From the NCBI RefSeq assembly GCF_988242995.1, contig NZ_OZ547043.1: a stretch of 64,000 bases of DNA; one strand, given 5' to 3'. The notes under the pieces were generated by a model. That model did no database searches, was not told the DNA's origin, and worked only from the letters and a program-made list of their open reading frames with translations. Shown here in pieces: positions 8,677 through 46,421 of this stretch. Each line of letters begins with the position of its first letter. Position 1 is the first letter of the stretch. The position numbers and the translations under genes are program-made.

Positions 8677-8680
8677 CTGC

Positions 8681-8780
8681 AGGATGCGCGGCCTACGGTG
8701 TATGACTTGTAGGACGGATAAGATGCGCCAGCATCGCATCCGACAAAAGTGTCGGATGCGGTTGATGATTTGTAGGCCGA
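8681..8780. repeat. REP (repetitive extragenic palindromic) elements
   Basis: Multiple GCCTAC/GTAGGC and CGGATGCG/CGCATCCG palindromic units between convergent ytfH and cpdB. Confidence 0.8.
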
Positions 8781-10736: not shown

Positions 10737-10925
10737 CAGGGACATCCTTTTATCATCGGGAATACGAAAGAAAAGGGAGAATAAACGTCTTACTTATAGA
10801 ACAGTGAAGAATGCCACAATTTTACGCTTTGAAAATGATGACACTATCACAGTTGGCGCATTCATTAACGATAGGGTATAAGTAAAACAATAAGTTAACA
10901 CCGCTCACAGAGACGAGGTGGAGAA

Positions 10926-13964: not shown

Positions 13965-13991
13965 CCAAAGTGCTATGCAGTAAATAAATAT

Positions 13992-14015
13992 CCTCCGGCA
14001 TAGCCGGAGGTTTTT
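13992..14015 (+). terminator. Rho-independent terminator after ytfK
   Basis: Stem cctccggc/gccggagg with a 3-nt loop followed by TTTTT. Confidence 0.85.
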
Positions 14016-14016
14016 C

Positions 14017-14735
14017 AAATGCGCCTGTAAGGCTCTGTTACCAGCCGCGCCCTAACAGGCGCATACGATCTGACATTTGCATTCAACTTCGTTACTTACG
14101 GCCCGTAAACGGGCTGCCCGGATATGGAATCGATAACTGCTCCCCCATTTTATCCTCTTCAAGCTGGTGCTTTATGTAGTCACGTATCTTCGCCGTGTTC
14201 TTACCCACCGTATCGACATAGTACCCTCGGCACCAGAACTCCCTGTTTCTGTATTTGAATTTCAAATCCCCAAACTGCTCGTAAAGCATCAGACTGCTTT
14301 TCCCTTTCAGATATCCCATAAAGCCGGATACGCTCATTTTGGGTGGGATTTCCACAAGCATATGGATATGATCTGCGCAGCACTCTGCTTCCAGAATCCG
14401 TACGCTTTTCCACTCACACAGCTTTCTCAAAATACTGCCTATCGCCCTACGCTTCTCTCCGTAAAACGCCAGTCTTCGGTATTTCGGCGCAAAAACTATG
14501 TGATATTTACAGTTCCAGCGGGTGTGCGCTAAGCTCTTTTCGTCCCCCATTGGGACCCCCTTTTGATTTCTTGTTTGACACTTGCAGTTGCCAGACCGCA
14601 AGGTGTTTTAACAAATCAAAAGGGGTTTTAATAACTGGCTCAAAGCTGAAAGCTTTCCGGAACCCCCAGCCTAGCTGGGGGTTTTCTGTGCACAATAAGA
14701 CGGCTCCTGATTCAGGAGCCGTTGATGTTTCTGGG
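14017..14735 (-). mobile_element. IS200-like insertion sequence (IS200/IS605 family); boundaries approximate
   Basis: About 0.7 kb unit carrying a single HUH Y1 transposase, subterminal hairpins at both ends and no terminal inverted repeats, lying between ytfK and ytfL. Confidence 0.8.
14092..14550 (-). CDS. tnpA: IS200-family Y1 (HUH) transposase TnpA
   Basis: 152-aa product MGDEKSLAHTRWNCKYHIVFAPKYRR...HIHMLVEIPPK...SPFTGRK with the HUH motif; RBS sequestered in an upstream hairpin. Confidence 0.92.
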   Translation of the reverse strand: MGDEKSLAHTRWNCKYHIVFAPKYRRLAFYGEKRRAIGSILRKLCEWKSVRILEAECCADHIHMLVEIPPKMSVSGFMGYLKGKSSLMLYEQFGDLKFKYRNREFWCRGYYVDTVGKNTAKIRDYIKHQLEEDKMGEQLSIPYPGSPFTGRK

Positions 14736-16081: not shown

Positions 16082-16257
16082 ATCTTATCCGACCTTTCAG
16101 GCCAGATCCTCGGAAGGGGAAGTTGATTAATTTGTGTGAAATACACATTGAAAGCCGATTCGAAGAAAGTGAACCGGCATTTTCAGTGGCTAGTATAGCG
16201 TAAGGTACTGTAAAGCCGCCAGAGGGTTAAAATTCAGACTGCTGATAAATGCAAAAC

Positions 16258-16365
16258 TGCCTGATGCGCTATGCCGATCAGGCCTACGCAGTCCCCACAA
16301 TATATTGATTTTGGACGATTTTGTAGGCCTGGCAAGGCGTTTACGCCGCATCCGGCATAGACAAA
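16258..16365. repeat. REP elements
   Basis: GCCTGATGCG...GATCAGGCCTAC and CGCATCCGGC palindromic units between ytfL and msrA. Confidence 0.8.
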
Positions 16366-16403
16366 TAGCACTTTATCAACAATCTACATTTGTACCCGTA
16401 ACG

Positions 16404-25789: not shown

Positions 25790-25890
25790 TCAATGCCTGA
25801 TGCCGACTTGTGGGCCGCCGGATAAGGCATTCACGCCGCATCCGGCGGTTGTGCGAGATGCCTGATGCGACGCAGTTGTGTCTTATCTGG
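25790..25890. repeat. REP elements
   Basis: GCCTGATGCCG, CGGATAAGGC and CGCCGCATCCGGCG palindromic units between ytfQ and ytfR. Confidence 0.8.
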
Positions 25891-25915
25891 CGCACGCTTT
25901 ACAACGGGGGAAACT

Positions 25916-29468: not shown

Positions 29469-30467
29469 TTACGCGTCCGGGAATTCACGGATAAAGCGTT
29501 CGACATCTTCAACCATATGGTCGTTGCCGACAAAGAACGAACGGCGCTGGTGCAGGGTTTCCGGGATGATATCCAGAATACGCTCTTTGCCATCGCTCGC
29601 TTTACCGCCCGCTTGTTCCGCCAGGAATGCCATCGGGTTGCACTCATACAGCAAACGCAGTTTACCGTCCGGGTGGCTGGCGGTGCTTGGGTAGAGATAA
29701 ATCCCACCTTTCAGCAGGTTACGGTGGAAATCCGCGACCAGTGAACCGATATAACGTGAGGTATACGGGCGATTGGTGGACTTATCTTCTTCCTGGCAGA
29801 ATTTAATGTACTTCTTCACCCCGTTCGGAAACTTAATGTAGTTTCCTTCGTTGATGGAGTAGGTTTTGCCTTTCTCCGGGAAGCGCATCCGTTCCTGGCA
29901 CAGGCAGAAAACGCCGAGCGAAGGATCGTAAGTAAAGGCGTGAACACCGCATCCGGTGGTGTAAACCAGCATGGTAGAGGAGCCGTATACCACGTAACCT
30001 GCCGCAACCTGTTTGTTACCAGGCTGGAGGAAATCTTCTTCCGTTACCGGCGTGCCAACAGGCGTAACGCGGCGGTAGATGGAGAAAATGGTACCGACAG
30101 AGACGTTAACATCGATGTTGGACGAGCCATCCAGGGGGTCCATCAGCACCACGTATTTTGCGTGTTCACAGCCTTCAAAGACGACAATCTCATCTTCTTC
30201 TTCAGAGGCAATGCCCGCAACGATATCGCGTGCTTTCAGTGCGGCTTTCAGTTTTTCATTAGCGAACAAGTCGAGTTTCTGCTGAACCTCGCCCTGCACG
30301 TTCTCAGCACCGCTGGCACCCAGGATATCAACCAGTCCTGCTTTGTTGATATCGCGATGGATAATCTTGGCGCCCAGTTTTATTGCCGACAGCAAAGCAG
30401 TGAGCTCACCGGTAGCATGAGAAAACTCGTGCTGCTTTTCGACAATAAATTCACCTAACGTTTTCAT
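29469..30467 (-). CDS. fbp: Fructose-1,6-bisphosphatase class 1
   Basis: 332-aa product [34 protein letters not shown]...; internal start chosen within track ORF 29469-30530. Confidence 0.96.
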
Positions 30468-32019: not shown

Positions 32020-32085
32020 GGCCTCAGCCTGATATAGCATTGCCGGATAAGGCGTTTACACCGCATCCGGCAAACCATACTCACA
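32020..32085. repeat. REP element
   Basis: GCCGGATAAGGCGTTTACACCGCATCCGGC palindromic unit between convergent mpl and yjgA. Confidence 0.8.
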
Positions 32086-34275: not shown

Positions 34276-34665
<390 letters not shown>

Positions 34666-34799
34666 TTCCTTATTGGGCGGTGAAACGTTACCGCCCAACG
34701 CTTTCTTCTCCCTTCGTAAAATCACCGCAATATCTATCTTCACCACGGCATATTCCTGCGTGTCGTCCTCATTTTTGCGAGGCGTTTTCCAGAAATGAA

Positions 34800-34832
34800 T
34801 GTAATGCATATGTAATGCTATAATGCATTACA
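34800..34832. promoter_or_regulatory. Candidate promoter/operator of the relBE-like TA cassette
   Basis: Two copies of TGTAATGC plus a TATAATGC copy, with the 10-bp perfect palindrome TAATGCATTA overlapping a TATAAT -10 hexamer about 30 bp upstream of the antitoxin start. Confidence 0.55.
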
Positions 34833-34856
34833 CTTTTCATAATTACCGGAGGCATA

Positions 34857-35099
34857 ATGGCCACACTTAACGTCCGCCTGGATGACAAACTGAAAAATGA
34901 GGCTTATGCGGTGCTGGAAAAATTAAATATCACGCCTACTGAAGCAGTGCGACTGCTGTTTCAGTACGTTGCGGAAAATGGACGAATGCCGGTAAAAACG
35001 CTCACTGTCAGTGATAGTGAAGAAGCCTTGTTACGCACTGTCAGGGAACGACTGGCCAACCCACAAGAGGCCATTAAGGTCCGACTGGATGAACTATGA
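34857..35099 (+). CDS. RelB/DinJ-family antitoxin (ribbon-helix-helix)
   Basis: 80-aa ORF MATLNVRLDDKLKNEAYAVLEKLNITPTEAVRLLFQYVAENGRMP... closely resembling E. coli RelB; GGAGG ribosome-binding site. Confidence 0.88.
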   Translation: MATLNVRLDDKLKNEAYAVLEKLNITPTEAVRLLFQYVAENGRMPVKTLTVSDSEEALLRTVRERLANPQEAIKVRLDEL

Positions 35100-35379
35100 G
35101 CTGGCGTTTGATCCGCGGGCGCTGAAAGAGTGGCAAAAACTGGGCGTGACAGTCCGGGAACAATTTAAAAAAAAGCTTGAGGATGTGCTGAAAAGGCCGC
35201 GCAATCCATCGGCTAAACTGCGGGATTTACCGGACTGCTACAAAATTAAGCTGCGCACACAGGGATATCGCCTGGTTTATCAGGTTAACGATAAAGAGTT
35301 GCTCGTGTTGGTGATAGCTATTGGTAAGAGAGAGAACTCAGCCGTTTATGAAGACGCGACTAAACGGCTGGATGAGTGA
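35089..35379 (+). CDS. RelE/StbE-family mRNA interferase toxin
   Basis: 96-aa product MNYELAFDPRALKEWQKLGVTVREQFKKKLEDVLKRPRNP...LPDCYKIKLRTQGYRLVYQV... closely resembling E. coli RelE; start overlaps the antitoxin stop by 11 nt. Confidence 0.88.
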   Translation: MNYELAFDPRALKEWQKLGVTVREQFKKKLEDVLKRPRNPSAKLRDLPDCYKIKLRTQGYRLVYQVNDKELLVLVIAIGKRENSAVYEDATKRLDE

Positions 35380-35844
35380 CTAACGCAAATGATGCACCAC
35401 CTGATTGCTGCTGCCGCGCCAGATCAGGGAAGGGTCTTTTAAATCCTGCACAAATTTGCCGTCGACCAGTACGTTAATCAAATCAACAACCTGCATTTGC
35501 GCAGCGTTGAGTTCGTCGAGTTTATAGCCTGTCCACACCCAGATGTCTTTACCCGGACATTCGGCGCGGATGCGTTGTACCAGTTTCAGAATATCCGGCA
35601 CGTTTTGCGGATGCAGCGGATCGCCGCCGGAGAGGGAAATCCCCTGGCGTTTGATGCGAGTGTCATTCAGATCGTTAATGATCTGGTCTTCCATTGCTTT
35701 GGTAAATGGCTGACCGGAATTTACCCGCCAGGTGCTTTTGTTATAGCAACCGGGGCATTCATGAACACACCCGGAGACAAACAGGGTGCAGCGAGTGCCG
35801 GGGCCGTTGACGATGTCGACAGGATAGTACTGATGAAAGTTCAT
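35380..35844 (-). CDS. nrdG: Anaerobic ribonucleoside-triphosphate reductase activating protein (radical SAM)
   Basis: 154-aa ORF MNFHQYYPVDIVNGPGTRCTLFVSGCVHECPGCYN... with a CxxxCxxC-type cluster motif. Confidence 0.95.
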   Translation of the reverse strand: MNFHQYYPVDIVNGPGTRCTLFVSGCVHECPGCYNKSTWRVNSGQPFTKAMEDQIINDLNDTRIKRQGISLSGGDPLHPQNVPDILKLVQRIRAECPGKDIWVWTGYKLDELNAAQMQVVDLINVLVDGKFVQDLKDPSLIWRGSSNQVVHHLR

Positions 35845-42869: not shown

Positions 42870-43132
42870 ATAGATGCTACGAATATTATTGGATTCTCCT
42901 TATTATTTGCGGCGCTTTTTTCACTTACCGGAGGTTATATGGAACCTGATCCCACGCCTCTCCCTCGACGGAGATTAAAACTTTTCCGGTAAGCCCGTCT
43001 TTTCACGGCGTTACCGGATGCGTAAGGCCGTGACGTTTTAACGTCCCTGCTCAGCTTTATTACCTTCAGGTAAGGCTTCGCCACGCCTGAAGACATTTCT
43101 GTACTGTTTCAGACAGTGTGGAGGGACTCCTT
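42870..43132 (+). promoter_or_regulatory. mgtA leader (Mg2+/proline-responsive attenuator region)
   Basis: Long untranslated leader between the PhoP-dependent promoter and mgtA, containing the proline-rich leader ORF mgtL. Confidence 0.7.
42939..42992 (+). CDS. mgtL: mgtA leader peptide
   Basis: 17-codon [20 protein letters not shown] with a GGAGG ribosome-binding site inside the mgtA leader. Confidence 0.85.
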
Positions 43133-45829
43133 ATGTTTAAAGAAATTTTTACCCGGTTCATTCGCCATTTACCTTCCCGTCTGGTTCATCGCGATCCATT
43201 GCCTGGCGCGCAGCAGACAGTGAATACGGCGGTCCCGCCGTCCTTAAGTGCGCATTGCCTGAAAATGGCGGTGATGCCCGAAGAAGAATTGTGGAAAACG
43301 TTCGACACCCATCCGGAAGGATTAAATCAGGCGGAAGTGGAATCTGCCCGCGAACAACATGGTGAAAATAAATTACCCGCACAACAACCGTCGCCGTGGT
43401 GGGTTCATTTATGGGTCTGCTATCGCAACCCCTTTAATATTTTACTCACCATTCTCGGCGCTATTTCTTACGCCACGGAAGATTTATTTGCCGCGGGCGT
43501 TATCGCGCTAATGGTCGCTATTTCTACGTTGCTGAACTTTATTCAGGAAGCACGTTCCACTAAAGCGGCAGATGCCCTGAAAGCGATGGTCAGCAATACT
43601 GCGACGGTGCTGCGCGTAATTAACGACAAAGGCGAAAATGGCTGGCTGGAGATCCCGATCGACCAGCTGGTGCCCGGCGATATTATAAAACTGGCGGCAG
43701 GGGATATGATCCCGGCAGATTTACGTATCTTGCAGGCGCGGGATCTGTTCGTCGCTCAGGCGTCGTTAACCGGTGAGTCTCTGCCCGTGGAAAAAGCCGC
43801 TACTACTCGCCAGCCGGAGCACAGCAATCCGCTGGAGTGCGACACCCTGTGTTTTATGGGCACCACCGTGGTGAGCGGCACGGCACAAGCAATGGTGATT
43901 GCTACAGGAGCCAACACCTGGTTTGGTCAACTGGCGGGGCGTGTTAGTGAGCAGGAAAGCGAGCCGAATGCCTTTCAGCAAGGGATCAGCCGCGTCAGTA
44001 TGCTGCTGATTCGCTTTATGCTGGTGATGGCTCCGGTGGTGTTGCTTATCAACGGTTACACCAAAGGTGACTGGTGGGAAGCGGCACTGTTTGCGCTTTC
44101 GGTCGCGGTAGGCCTAACGCCGGAAATGTTGCCGATGATTGTTACCTCGACGCTGGCGCGCGGCGCAGTAAAGCTGTCGAAACAGAAAGTGATCGTCAAA
44201 CATCTGGATGCCATTCAGAACTTTGGCGCAATGGATATTCTGTGCACTGATAAAACCGGCACCCTGACACAGGATAAAATTGTGCTGGAGAATCATACCG
44301 ATATCTCCGGTAAAACCAGCGAACGCGTGCTGCATAGCGCGTGGTTGAACAGTCATTACCAGACCGGACTTAAAAACCTGCTTGATACCGCGGTGCTCGA
44401 AGGTACGGATGAAGAGTCAGCGCGCTCGCTGGCCAGCCGTTGGCAAAAAATTGATGAGATTCCGTTTGATTTCGAGCGTCGCCGGATGTCGGTGGTAGTG
44501 GCAGAAAATACCGAGCACCATCAGCTGGTTTGCAAAGGTGCATTGCAGGAAATCCTCAATGTGTGTTCGCAGGTGCGTCACAATGGCGAGATTGTGCCGC
44601 TCGATGACATCATGCTGCGTAAGATTAAGCGGGTTACTGATACGCTGAATCGTCAGGGGCTGCGCGTGGTTGCGGTGGCGACGAAATACCTGCCAGCGCG
44701 TGAAGGAGATTACCAGCGGGCGGATGAATCCGACCTGATCCTCGAAGGATATATTGCTTTCCTTGATCCGCCAAAAGAGACAACTGCTCCGGCACTGAAG
44801 GCATTAAAAGCGAGTGGCATTACCGTAAAAATCCTTACTGGCGACAGTGAGTTAGTTGCAGCGAAAGTGTGCCATGAAGTGGGGCTGGACGCGGGAGAGG
44901 TGGTCATTGGTAGTGATATTGAAACGCTATCTGACGACGAACTGGCAAATCTCGCACAGCGCACCACGCTGTTTGCTCGCCTGACGCCGATGCATAAAGA
45001 ACGCATTGTGACCTTACTGAAGCGCGAAGGGCATGTGGTTGGCTTTATGGGCGATGGTATAAATGATGCGCCCGCCTTACGTGCTGCGGATATCGGCATT
45101 TCTGTGGACGGCGCGGTAGATATTGCCCGTGAAGCGGCTGATATCATCCTGCTGGAAAAAAGCCTGATGGTGCTGGAAGAGGGGGTTATTGAGGGACGTC
45201 GCACTTTCGCCAACATGCTGAAATACATCAAAATGACGGCGAGTTCTAACTTCGGTAATGTGTTCAGCGTGCTGGTGGCGAGTGCTTTCTTGCCCTTCCT
45301 GCCGATGTTGCCGTTACACTTGCTTATTCAGAACCTGCTGTACGATGTGTCACAGGTGGCGATCCCGTTTGATAACGTCGACGACGAGCAAATTCAAAAG
45401 CCGCAGCGTTGGAATCCGGCGGATCTGGGGCGCTTTATGATCTTCTTCGGACCGATCAGCTCGATCTTCGATATTCTGACGTTTTGCCTGATGTGGTGGG
45501 TATTCCATGCCAACACGCCGGAAACGCAAACGCTGTTCCAGTCGGGCTGGTTTGTGGTGGGCTTACTGTCGCAAACGCTGATTGTGCATATGATCCGCAC
45601 CCGTCGTGTACCGTTTATTCAGAGCTGTGCATCGTGGCCGTTAATGATCATGACCGTGATCGTGATGATTGTCGGGATCGCATTGCCGTTTTCACCGCTG
45701 GCCAGTTATCTGCAGCTGCAGGCGCTGCCGTTAAGCTATTTCCCGTGGCTGGTTGCGATTCTGGCAGGGTATATGACGTTAACCCAGTTGGTGAAAGGAT
45801 TTTATAGCCGTCGTTACGGCTGGCAGTAA
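43133..45829 (+). CDS. mgtA: Mg2+-importing P-type ATPase
   Basis: 898-aa product MFKEIFTRFIRHLP... with P-type ATPase motifs DKTGTLT and GDGINDAPAL; internal start chosen within track ORF 43118-45829. Confidence 0.96.
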   Translation: MFKEIFTRFIRHLPSRLVHRDPLPGAQQTVNTAVPPSLSAHCLKMAVMPEEELWKTFDTHPEGLNQAEVESAREQHGENKLPAQQPSPWWVHLWVCYRNPFNILLTILGAISYATEDLFAAGVIALMVAISTLLNFIQEARSTKAADALKAMVSNTATVLRVINDKGENGWLEIPIDQLVPGDIIKLAAGDMIPADLRILQARDLFVAQASLTGESLPVEKAATTRQPEHSNPLECDTLCFMGTTVVSGTAQAMVIATGANTWFGQLAGRVSEQESEPNAFQQGISRVSMLLIRFMLVMAPVVLLINGYTKGDWWEAALFALSVAVGLTPEMLPMIVTSTLARGAVKLSKQKVIVKHLDAIQNFGAMDILCTDKTGTLTQDKIVLENHTDISGKTSERVLHSAWLNSHYQTGLKNLLDTAVLEGTDEESARSLASRWQKIDEIPFDFERRRMSVVVAENTEHHQLVCKGALQEILNVCSQVRHNGEIVPLDDIMLRKIKRVTDTLNRQGLRVVAVATKYLPAREGDYQRADESDLILEGYIAFLDPPKETTAPALKALKASGITVKILTGDSELVAAKVCHEVGLDAGEVVIGSDIETLSDDELANLAQRTTLFARLTPMHKERIVTLLKREGHVVGFMGDGINDAPALRAADIGISVDGAVDIAREAADIILLEKSLMVLEEGVIEGRRTFANMLKYIKMTASSNFGNVFSVLVASAFLPFLPMLPLHLLIQNLLYDVSQVAIPFDNVDDEQIQKPQRWNPADLGRFMIFFGPISSIFDILTFCLMWWVFHANTPETQTLFQSGWFVVGLLSQTLIVHMIRTRRVPFIQSCASWPLMIMTVIVMIVGIALPFSPLASYLQLQALPLSYFPWLVAILAGYMTLTQLVKGFYSRRYGWQ

Positions 45830-45834
45830 AGAAT

Positions 45835-46030
45835 AAACTGGGCATGGTGGCCCGGATTCAGATTGCAGACAAAGTGAGTTTTGTTCATGCCGGATGCGGC
45901 GTAAACGCCCAATCCGGCCTACAAATTCAATAAATTGCAGGAATCACGTAGGCCTGATAAGCGTAGCGCATCAGGCGATTTTGCGTTTGTCATCAGACTT
46001 AATCCGGGCATGATAGCCCGGATTTCCATC
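45835..46030. repeat. REP/BIME elements
   Basis: Several palindromic units (GCCGGATGCGGCG, GTAGGCCTGATAAGCG, CCGGGCATGATAGCCCGG) between convergent mgtA and ridA. Confidence 0.8.
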
Positions 46031-46034
46031 AAGA

Positions 46035-46421
46035 TTAGCGACGAACAGCGATCGCTTCGATCTCAATCTTCACGTCTTTCGGCAGACGGGCAACTTCAAC
46101 GCAAGAACGTGCCGGGAAGGTGGCGTTGTGTTCGGTGAAGAAGGCTTCGTAGGTAGCATTAACGGTTGCGAAGTCGTTCAGATCTTTCACAAACACGGTG
46201 GTTTTAACGATGTCGCCCACTTTCAGGCCTGCGGCTTCGACGATCGCTTTTACGTTATCCAGCGACTGACGAGCCTGTGCAGCGACGTCTGCCGGTACTT
46301 CGCCCGTTTTCGGATTTACCGGGATCTGACCGGAGGTGATGATCATATTGCCCAGATCAACGCCCTGTACGTAAGGACCGATAGCTGCCGGTGCATTTTC
46401 CGTCGCGATAGTTTTGCTCAT
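46035..46421 (-). CDS. ridA: Enamine/imine deaminase RidA (YjgF/TdcF family)
   Basis: 128-aa product MSKTIATENAPAAIGPYVQG...; internal start chosen within track ORF 46035-46493. Confidence 0.95.
   Translation of the reverse strand: MSKTIATENAPAAIGPYVQGVDLGNMIITSGQIPVNPKTGEVPADVAAQARQSLDNVKAIVEAAGLKVGDIVKTTVFVKDLNDFATVNATYEAFFTEHNATFPARSCVEVARLPKDVKIEIEAIAVRR

Follow-up and report, generated by a model that had tools for sequence, protein, structure and literature searches.

The REP, or palindromic unit, family of Escherichia coli, comprising the y, z1 and z2 types, is long established (Stern 1984; Gilson 1984; Bachellier 1999; restated in PMC3333891 and PMC12306157), and the conserved 5' GTAG of its members is needed for binding by TnpA-REP (PMC3333891). 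REPs are assembled into two kinds of larger element: BIME-1, defined as a single-copy combination of y and z1 separated by a long (L) linker that contains an IHF site (PMC3333891), and BIME-2, in which y and z2 are joined by short linkers into tandem arrays of variable number (PMC3333891, PMC6379681), variation in the number of units per locus being a stated hallmark of this second class (PMC3333891). Considering that z1 is tied to BIME-1 and z2 to BIME-2 (PMC3333891, PMC6379681), the short 30-nt z copies described below are taken to be z1, and the long 37-nt z copies to be z2. BIME-2 elements represent preferred gyrase sites (Espeli and Boccard 1997; PMC6379681), while mRNA stabilisation and the binding of IHF and gyrase have been published for REPs at other loci (PMC3333891, PMC12306157, PMC6379681, PMC3184786), as has ribosome stalling if a REP is located within 15 nt of a stop codon. 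REPs have been catalogued in E. coli for approximately 40 years, and the analysis presented here is therefore of little significance as a discovery, its value being mainly corrective; the one mildly novel item is a hairpin duplication around the BIME-1 of the mgtA-ridA spacer, which provides a small lead on the insertion of such elements.

The window, by which is meant the whole 64-kb stretch of DNA analysed in the current work, is part of an E. coli chromosome: of 5,426 complete genomes of this species, 5,424 contain a match to a 1.5-kb probe, with identities of 95-99.6%, and the window is colinear with approximately 4.426-4.489 Mb of K-12 MG1655, from rpsR/rplI to lptG, at ~97.5% identity. 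REPs were searched for by blastn-short with three REP consensus types and with an HMM built from the copies, and significant matches (blastn-short E-values down to 1e-14) were obtained at exactly seven loci, being the six positions that a previous sequence-only reading had listed plus 59595-59874. The corresponding match positions are 8709-8745, 16258-16287, 16323-16357, 25813-25848, 25859-25895, 32042-32073, 45888-45922, 45948-45977, 59595-59874 (six copies) and 63962-63998; a further weak HMM match inside fbp (29935-29956; E 0.02) was taken as chance. The six listed sites are thus real, each of the coordinate ranges containing REP sequence, and their boundaries were generous yet sound in that they also cover partial REPs and BIME flanking motifs; the list was incomplete, the largest cluster (59571-59896, between pepA and holC) having been left out. 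A scan with the Y consensus allowing up to three mismatches, the check proposed by that reading, returned four matches as compared to none in 100 shuffles, one of these being at a listed site (45889-45922) and the other three at the unlisted locus (59648-59873). In total, the window contains 15 complete REPs as well as fragments, distributed over seven spacers as follows:

8677-8696, minus strand: truncated REP remnant directly after the ytfH stop, with a CTAC tail at 8693-8696 (K-12 alignment)
8709-8745, plus strand: complete REP of y/z hybrid type between the convergent genes ytfH and cpdB, reading GTAG...CATCCGACA (blastn-short E 3e-4; HMM E 9e-7)
8750-8779, no strand assigned: two REP fragments, the left arm TGTCGGATGCGG and the head GTAGGCCG (sequence; fold)
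16232-16385, minus strand: BIME-1-type element lying 3' of msrA and ahead of the co-directional paeA (154-bp homology to 45860-46003; REP matches), composed of a short z REP (16258-16287), an IHF-type site AATCAATATATTG (16298-16310) that matches WATCAANNNNTTR exactly, and a y REP (16323-16357), plus inverted flanking motifs
25794-25895, plus strand: degenerate BIME-2-like pair inside the ytfQRT-yjfF operon (blastn-short; HMM; Rfam; K-12 alignment), composed of a partial arm (25794-25806), a y REP with GTAG mutated to GTGG and three extra bases (25813-25848), and a long z REP with a decayed tail (25859-25895)
32042-32073, plus strand: single y REP with no GTAG, between the convergent genes mpl and yjgA (blastn-short; HMM; K-12 alignment)
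45834-45858, plus strand: 25-nt hairpin lying 4 nt past the mgtA stop, the left member of a direct repeat whose two copies agree at 21 of 25 positions
45859-46005, plus strand: BIME-1-type element in the convergent mgtA/ridA spacer (consensus; blastn-short; HMM; self-comparison), composed of a y REP (45888-45922), an IHF-type site ATTCAATAAATTG with one mismatch (45925-45937) and a short z REP (45948-45977), plus inverted flanking motifs
46000-46024, plus strand: right member of the hairpin repeat (TAATCCGGGCATGATAGCCCGGATT), separated from the ridA stop by 10 nt, and the counterpart of the single Citrobacter hairpin by ridA
59571-59896, minus strand: BIME-2 array in the spacer that follows pepA and precedes holC (score as a tandem repeat 504, with 93% matches), with partial arms at both ends, long z REPs at 59595-59631, 59693-59729 and 59789-59825, and y REPs at 59648-59682, 59744-59778 and 59840-59874
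63872-63899, plus strand: canonical intrinsic terminator of lptG, a 9-bp stem followed by a T-run (fold; sequence)
63942-63998, plus strand: long z REP (63962-63998) preceded by the linker-like motif ATTCAATATATTG (63942-63954), in the convergent lptG/yjgR spacer (blastn-short; HMM; K-12 alignment)

All seven loci are intergenic, an outcome expected by chance at a frequency of ~4e-7 given that intergenic DNA makes up 12.3% of the window. A consensus-independent self-comparison of the window linked the REP loci to one another, with the exception of 8709-8745, and revealed no dispersed repeat besides them. Alignment identified a K-12 counterpart for each REP site; the K-12 RefSeq record has no repeat features annotated in these spacers, and no site-level annotation of these REPs emerged from the supplements searched. 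Aligned in one orientation, the 15 copies, imperfect palindromes of 30-37 nt that fall within the E. coli REP definition of ~20-40 nt, share a consensus in which a 5' GTAG is followed by a stem of 7 bp, an internal mismatch of 2 nt and an upper stem; at four of ten pairs the y and z types differ in a compensatory manner, and the E. coli REP structure described in PMC3333891 agrees with this consensus. The GTAG is exact in 11 copies and mutated or absent in the remaining four (at 25813, 25859-25895, 32038 and 63962), the last of which has GTGG instead and adjoins the end of the window. The repeat units are multi-copy in nearly all of the 5,426 complete E. coli genomes, where megablast found the BIME-1 unit at a median of at least 17 places per genome (in 5,425 of 5,426 genomes), the 96-bp BIME-2 unit at a median of four, and a query containing the whole pepA-holC array at a median of 36. 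The sequence-only reading was accordingly right to regard such repeats as typical of the E. coli core chromosome, and we consider it very probable that the sites are canonical enterobacterial REPs of the y and z types, present as BIME-1, as BIME-2, or as single or decayed copies, in spacers which are transcribed from the upstream gene and contain no promoter for a gene further downstream.

Several differences with respect to K-12 MG1655 were recorded outside the REP spacers. A 709-bp insertion at 13985-14693, between ytfK and paeA, corresponds to an IS200-type element encoding a Y1 transposase (14092-14550, minus strand; Pfam Y1_Tnp, E 7e-37) of a family related to the REP-associated TnpA, and an Rfam STnc490 match (14560-14683) overlies the 5' region of the element. 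A second 709-bp insertion (34675-35383, between cybC and nrdG) encodes a relB-type antitoxin (34857-35099) and a ParE/RelE-type toxin (35089-35379); the idea that the two insertions represent one element was rejected, since an IS200-like element and a relB/parE module bear no similarity to each other and their equal length is coincidental. The cytochrome b562 gene cybC (34279-34665) is an intact 128-codon open reading frame and is annotated as a pseudogene in K-12, while the region 51501-54257, encompassing a yjgL-like gene, argI and rraB, is just ~90% identical to K-12 as compared to ~97-99% elsewhere, the yjgL-like gene being shorter (555 codons) and containing short tandem repeats at 51501-51552 and 51996-52043. 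Four additional Rfam matches scored above threshold:

10737-10859: ES239 sRNA, in the cpdB-cysQ spacer
16143-16200: STnc450, upstream of paeA
42924-43039: Mg2+ riboswitch, in the mgtA leader
60656-60850: Ysr276, antisense within pepA

The two BIME-1 elements are homologous over ~150 bp, including their flanking motifs, and each is present as a single copy at its locus; taken by itself, the IHF consensus shows no enrichment in the window, five occurrences having been found and 2.75 expected. At the mgtA-ridA locus, the element (~141 bp, 45859-45999) lies exactly between the two copies of the hairpin, TAATCCGGGC-N6-GCCCGGATT, both of which are also included in the range 45835-46030 of the sequence-only reading. 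In another E. coli lineage (L032), both hairpin copies start with TAATCCGGGC and end with GCCCGGATT. Identification of the flanking hairpin as a dispersed repeat was rejected, as an E. coli genome contains it at just one place. An empty mgtA-ridA site was found in none of the 5,426 E. coli genomes. Representative genomes were scanned with a degenerate pattern for the 3' end of ridA, and three Citrobacter genomes carry one such hairpin, located 31-34 nt from the ridA stop and without a BIME-1, mgtA and ridA being syntenic in one of these genomes. E. albertii and an uncultured enterobacterium have related hairpins, likewise as single copies. Among relatives that possess the mgtA-ridA gene pair, spacers measure 42-102 bp, and spacers longer than this contain REP families of the genus concerned. 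Such families were observed in the mgtA-ridA spacers of Pseudocitrobacter, Enterobacter and Kosakonia (L038, L050, L101, L121; for example TGCCCGGTGGCGCT...CCGGGCCTAC). The presence of these distinct families in other genera shows independent colonisation of one convergent spacer.

The simplest reading of this comparison is that a BIME-1 would have inserted in the Escherichia lineage beside the terminator hairpin of ridA, the hairpin having become duplicated. The other BIME-1 of the window (msrA-paeA) has no such flanking repeat, and no specific description of a BIME target duplication, or of a hairpin repeat flanking a BIME-1, was found in the literature searched. That the mgtA-ridA BIME-1 preserves an insertion footprint, with the duplication made by the insertion event itself, is a tentative proposal which we judge unlikely to be correct. 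If true, it would mean that BIME-1 elements inserted into or next to a terminator hairpin and left a long duplication of the target, unlike transposition of the IS200/IS605 type, and the footprint would constrain the mechanism by which REPs and BIMEs spread.

Strain-to-strain variation was observed in the pepA-holC spacer, whose six REPs (59595-59874) are arranged as a tandem array of 3.1 units, each 96 bp in length and made of a long 37-nt z and a y. Three units are present in the window as compared to one in K-12, and in an evenly spaced sample of 59 E. coli genomes alleles of ~851, 755 and 657 bp correspond to three, two and one units, respectively, and a further allele of 631 bp has, in place of the BIME, a palindromic element of ~93 bp unrelated to it. 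This replacement was observed in approximately one quarter of the sampled strains, for example in the holC-pepA spacer of E. coli O104:H4 (L003, 245-377), and contains CCCTCTCCCTTAGGGAGAGGGTTAGGGTGAGGG; the element may be similar to the 'box C' class among the intergenic repeats of E. coli. At three other sites the indels that distinguish the window from K-12 begin and end within REPs: the first REP behind ytfH lacks 11 bp of its interior, the ytfQ-ytfR pair shows small indels, and the mpl-yjgA spacer is 73 bp shorter than that of K-12, which contains a y, a long z (z2) and half a y, the indel ends falling inside y REPs. Such strain differences, namely one to three units or another element at pepA-holC, the 73-bp mpl-yjgA indel and the small deletions, represent textbook BIME behaviour. 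Spread of the elements, and gain and loss of their units, would proceed through the REP-associated Y1 transposase (TnpA-REP, RAYT) together with REP-to-REP recombination, these two activities being the proposed cause of the differences in copy number and of the indels. The 64-kb window contains no RAYT (tnpA-REP) gene, its sole Y1 transposase gene being the IS200-type tnpA (14092-14550).

This variability bears on a different view of the same elements, according to which they are selfish, slowly replicating REPIN/BIME passengers of promoter-free spacers that have no site-specific host function and are found after genes because insertion is harmless there. In line with this, their presence, absence and copy number differ by strain with no obvious consequence, the pepA-holC BIME has in some strains been swapped for an unrelated palindromic element, the GTAG has decayed in 4 of 15 copies, other genera fill the mgtA-ridA spacer with REP families of their own, and the mgtA-ridA BIME-1 resembles an insertion flanked by a duplication. 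Against it, this BIME-1 is fixed in the surveyed E. coli, with 0 of 5,426 sites empty, and published experiments on other REPs and BIMEs show mRNA stabilisation, IHF binding and gyrase binding. As a full account of the window copies it appears rather unlikely, and it is not exclusive of the main explanation, with which it is compatible; the four copies of 15 that lack an intact GTAG, together with several truncated ones, may be decaying passengers without a role.

The BIME-2 units also match the Rfam model of the nucleoid-associated RNA naRNA4 (RF02564; cut-off 59.5 bits) at three positions:

59651-59726: naRNA4 match, 82.2 bits
59747-59822: naRNA4 match, 77.9 bits
25816-25892: naRNA4 match, 61.6 bits

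In K-12, the naRNA4 locus REP325 is situated between yjdM and yjdA, outside the window, its RNA binds HU, and most REPs are transcribed (PMC4550694), from which it might be argued that the window units likewise encode nucleoid-associated RNAs that condense the chromosome together with HU. Even though all three matches exceed the gathering score, the naRNA4 matches are simply BIME-2 units: the Rfam model in effect equals a y plus long z unit, so that any such unit scores and the score does not show function. REP325 is moreover a different locus, a dedicated promoter is not evident in the window, and the pepA-holC array varies from zero to three units by strain. We therefore regard an naRNA4-like role as very improbable.

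The distribution of the REPs over gene junctions is relevant to what they may do at the RNA level. The sequence-only reading had stated that REPs partition convergent and divergent gene pairs throughout the window, mostly at operon ends, and that they act as mRNA stabilisers or in a terminator-like manner. All copies lie 3' of a gene, and the junctions concerned are the following:

Convergent junctions: 4 of 15 with REPs (ytfH/cpdB, mpl/yjgA, mgtA/ridA, lptG/yjgR)
Co-directional junctions: 3 of 32 with REPs (msrA to paeA, ytfQ to ytfR, pepA to holC)
Divergent junctions: 0 of 14 with REPs

The statement fails for divergent pairs, and 'throughout' overstates the case, as REPs are present at just 7 of 61 gene junctions. 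With so small a number of sites, the contrast between junction types does not by itself reach significance (Fisher p = 0.19); the absence of REPs from the 14 divergent, promoter-bearing spacers agrees with the established bias of REPs towards gene ends (PMC12306157, PMC3184786). Operon-end placement does not apply to 25790-25890, where the REPs are located inside the galactofuranose ABC-transporter operon ytfQ-ytfR-ytfT-yjfF, directly after the gene for the periplasmic binding protein. The literature search yielded nothing specific on the ytfQ REPs, and differential mRNA stability is the classic interpretation of an intra-operonic site of this type.

When folded as RNA on the transcribed strand, the REP spacers gave z-scores of -3.2 to -8.6 relative to dinucleotide shuffles, with at most 1 of 200 shuffles folding as well. 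The individual values are -5.1 (plus strand) and -5.3 (minus strand) for ytfH/cpdB, where the predicted RNA structure has the left arm TGTCGGATGCGG paired to the REP ahead of it, -4.65 and -5.05 for the BIME-1 elements of msrA-paeA and mgtA-ridA, respectively, -3.2 for ytfQ-ytfR, -3.3 (plus strand) and -4.2 (minus strand) for mpl/yjgA, and -8.6 for the pepA-holC array. Such G+C-rich hairpins situated just after stop codons, four of them between convergent genes, the usual place of bidirectional terminators, could be taken for ordinary Rho-independent terminators that do not constitute a repeat family at all. An intrinsic terminator consists of a G+C-rich hairpin followed by a U-tract, and inspection detected no U-tract after any REP, while a terminator scan of the mgtA-ridA spacer (45700-46150) returned no terminator-like site. 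The only canonical terminator is the structure at 63872-63899, which is not a REP and by which lptG is served separately, ~60 nt upstream of its REP. The convergent spacers without a REP, which are short (32-88 bp), carry plain short palindromes (for example 758-784 and 56201-56224); the ytfQ-ytfR site is located inside an operon whose downstream genes need to be transcribed; and the REPs form a dispersed family with a shared consensus. A terminator identity is on these grounds very improbable, and the description 'terminator-like' is weak. From the lack of U-tracts combined with the strong folds, protection of mRNA 3' ends emerges as the better-founded RNA role, the modelled structures fitting 3'-end-protecting hairpins better than intrinsic terminators. 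A chance origin of the palindromes in G+C-rich intergenic DNA, for which their short length alone would speak, is already refuted, as none of 100 shuffles reached the observed matches, E-values extend to 1e-14, the loci are homologous to each other and the folding z-scores are strongly negative.

Under the preferred explanation, in which the sites are canonical REPs and BIMEs in transcribed spacers, the G+C-rich hairpins, whether they close a transcript at its 3' end or separate two cistrons, would block 3'-to-5' exonucleases and thereby stabilise the upstream message, a role that fits the strong predicted hairpins by analogy with REPs studied elsewhere. At ytfQ/ytfR, the message of the binding-protein gene would be raised relative to that of the downstream transporter genes, as described for malE-malF. 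At the DNA level, the long linkers of the two BIME-1 elements may bind IHF, and the y REPs of the pepA-holC array may serve as preferred gyrase sites.

Comparison with the individual known systems places each site in relation to its closest counterpart. Intra-operon REPs of binding-protein transport operons, malE-malF and hisJ-hisQ, were reportedly described by Newbury, Stern and Higgins in 1987-88, and the ytfQ-ytfR REPs are likewise situated directly after the periplasmic binding-protein gene of an ABC-transporter operon. With naRNA4/REP325, the window units share BIME-2 sequence and structure and scores above the Rfam cut-off, and the window loci (pepA-holC and ytfQ-ytfR) differ from it in chromosomal place. 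The pepA-holC array is like other BIME-2 elements in its tandem units of long z and y and in its three, two or one units according to strain, and by analogy it would share their gyrase preference, whereas the ytfQ-ytfR pair differs from them as a degenerate single unit. With BIME-1, also named RIP or RIB, the elements at 16232-16385 and 45859-46005 share the exact layout of inverse y and short z across a long linker; one of the two putative IHF sites deviates from the consensus by one base, and the mgtA-ridA copy differs by the duplicated 25-bp hairpin that flanks it. Relative to the E. coli REP family as a whole, the window copies are alike in length, GTAG, mismatched palindrome, consensus, extragenic place and copy number and show no substantial difference, the four GTAG-altered copies and the several truncated ones representing normal decay. 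The REP and BIME elements of the window, whose family identity, hairpin potential, position 3' of genes, multi-copy status and strain variation were observed in the current work, are thus already known elements that are ordinary for the E. coli core genome.
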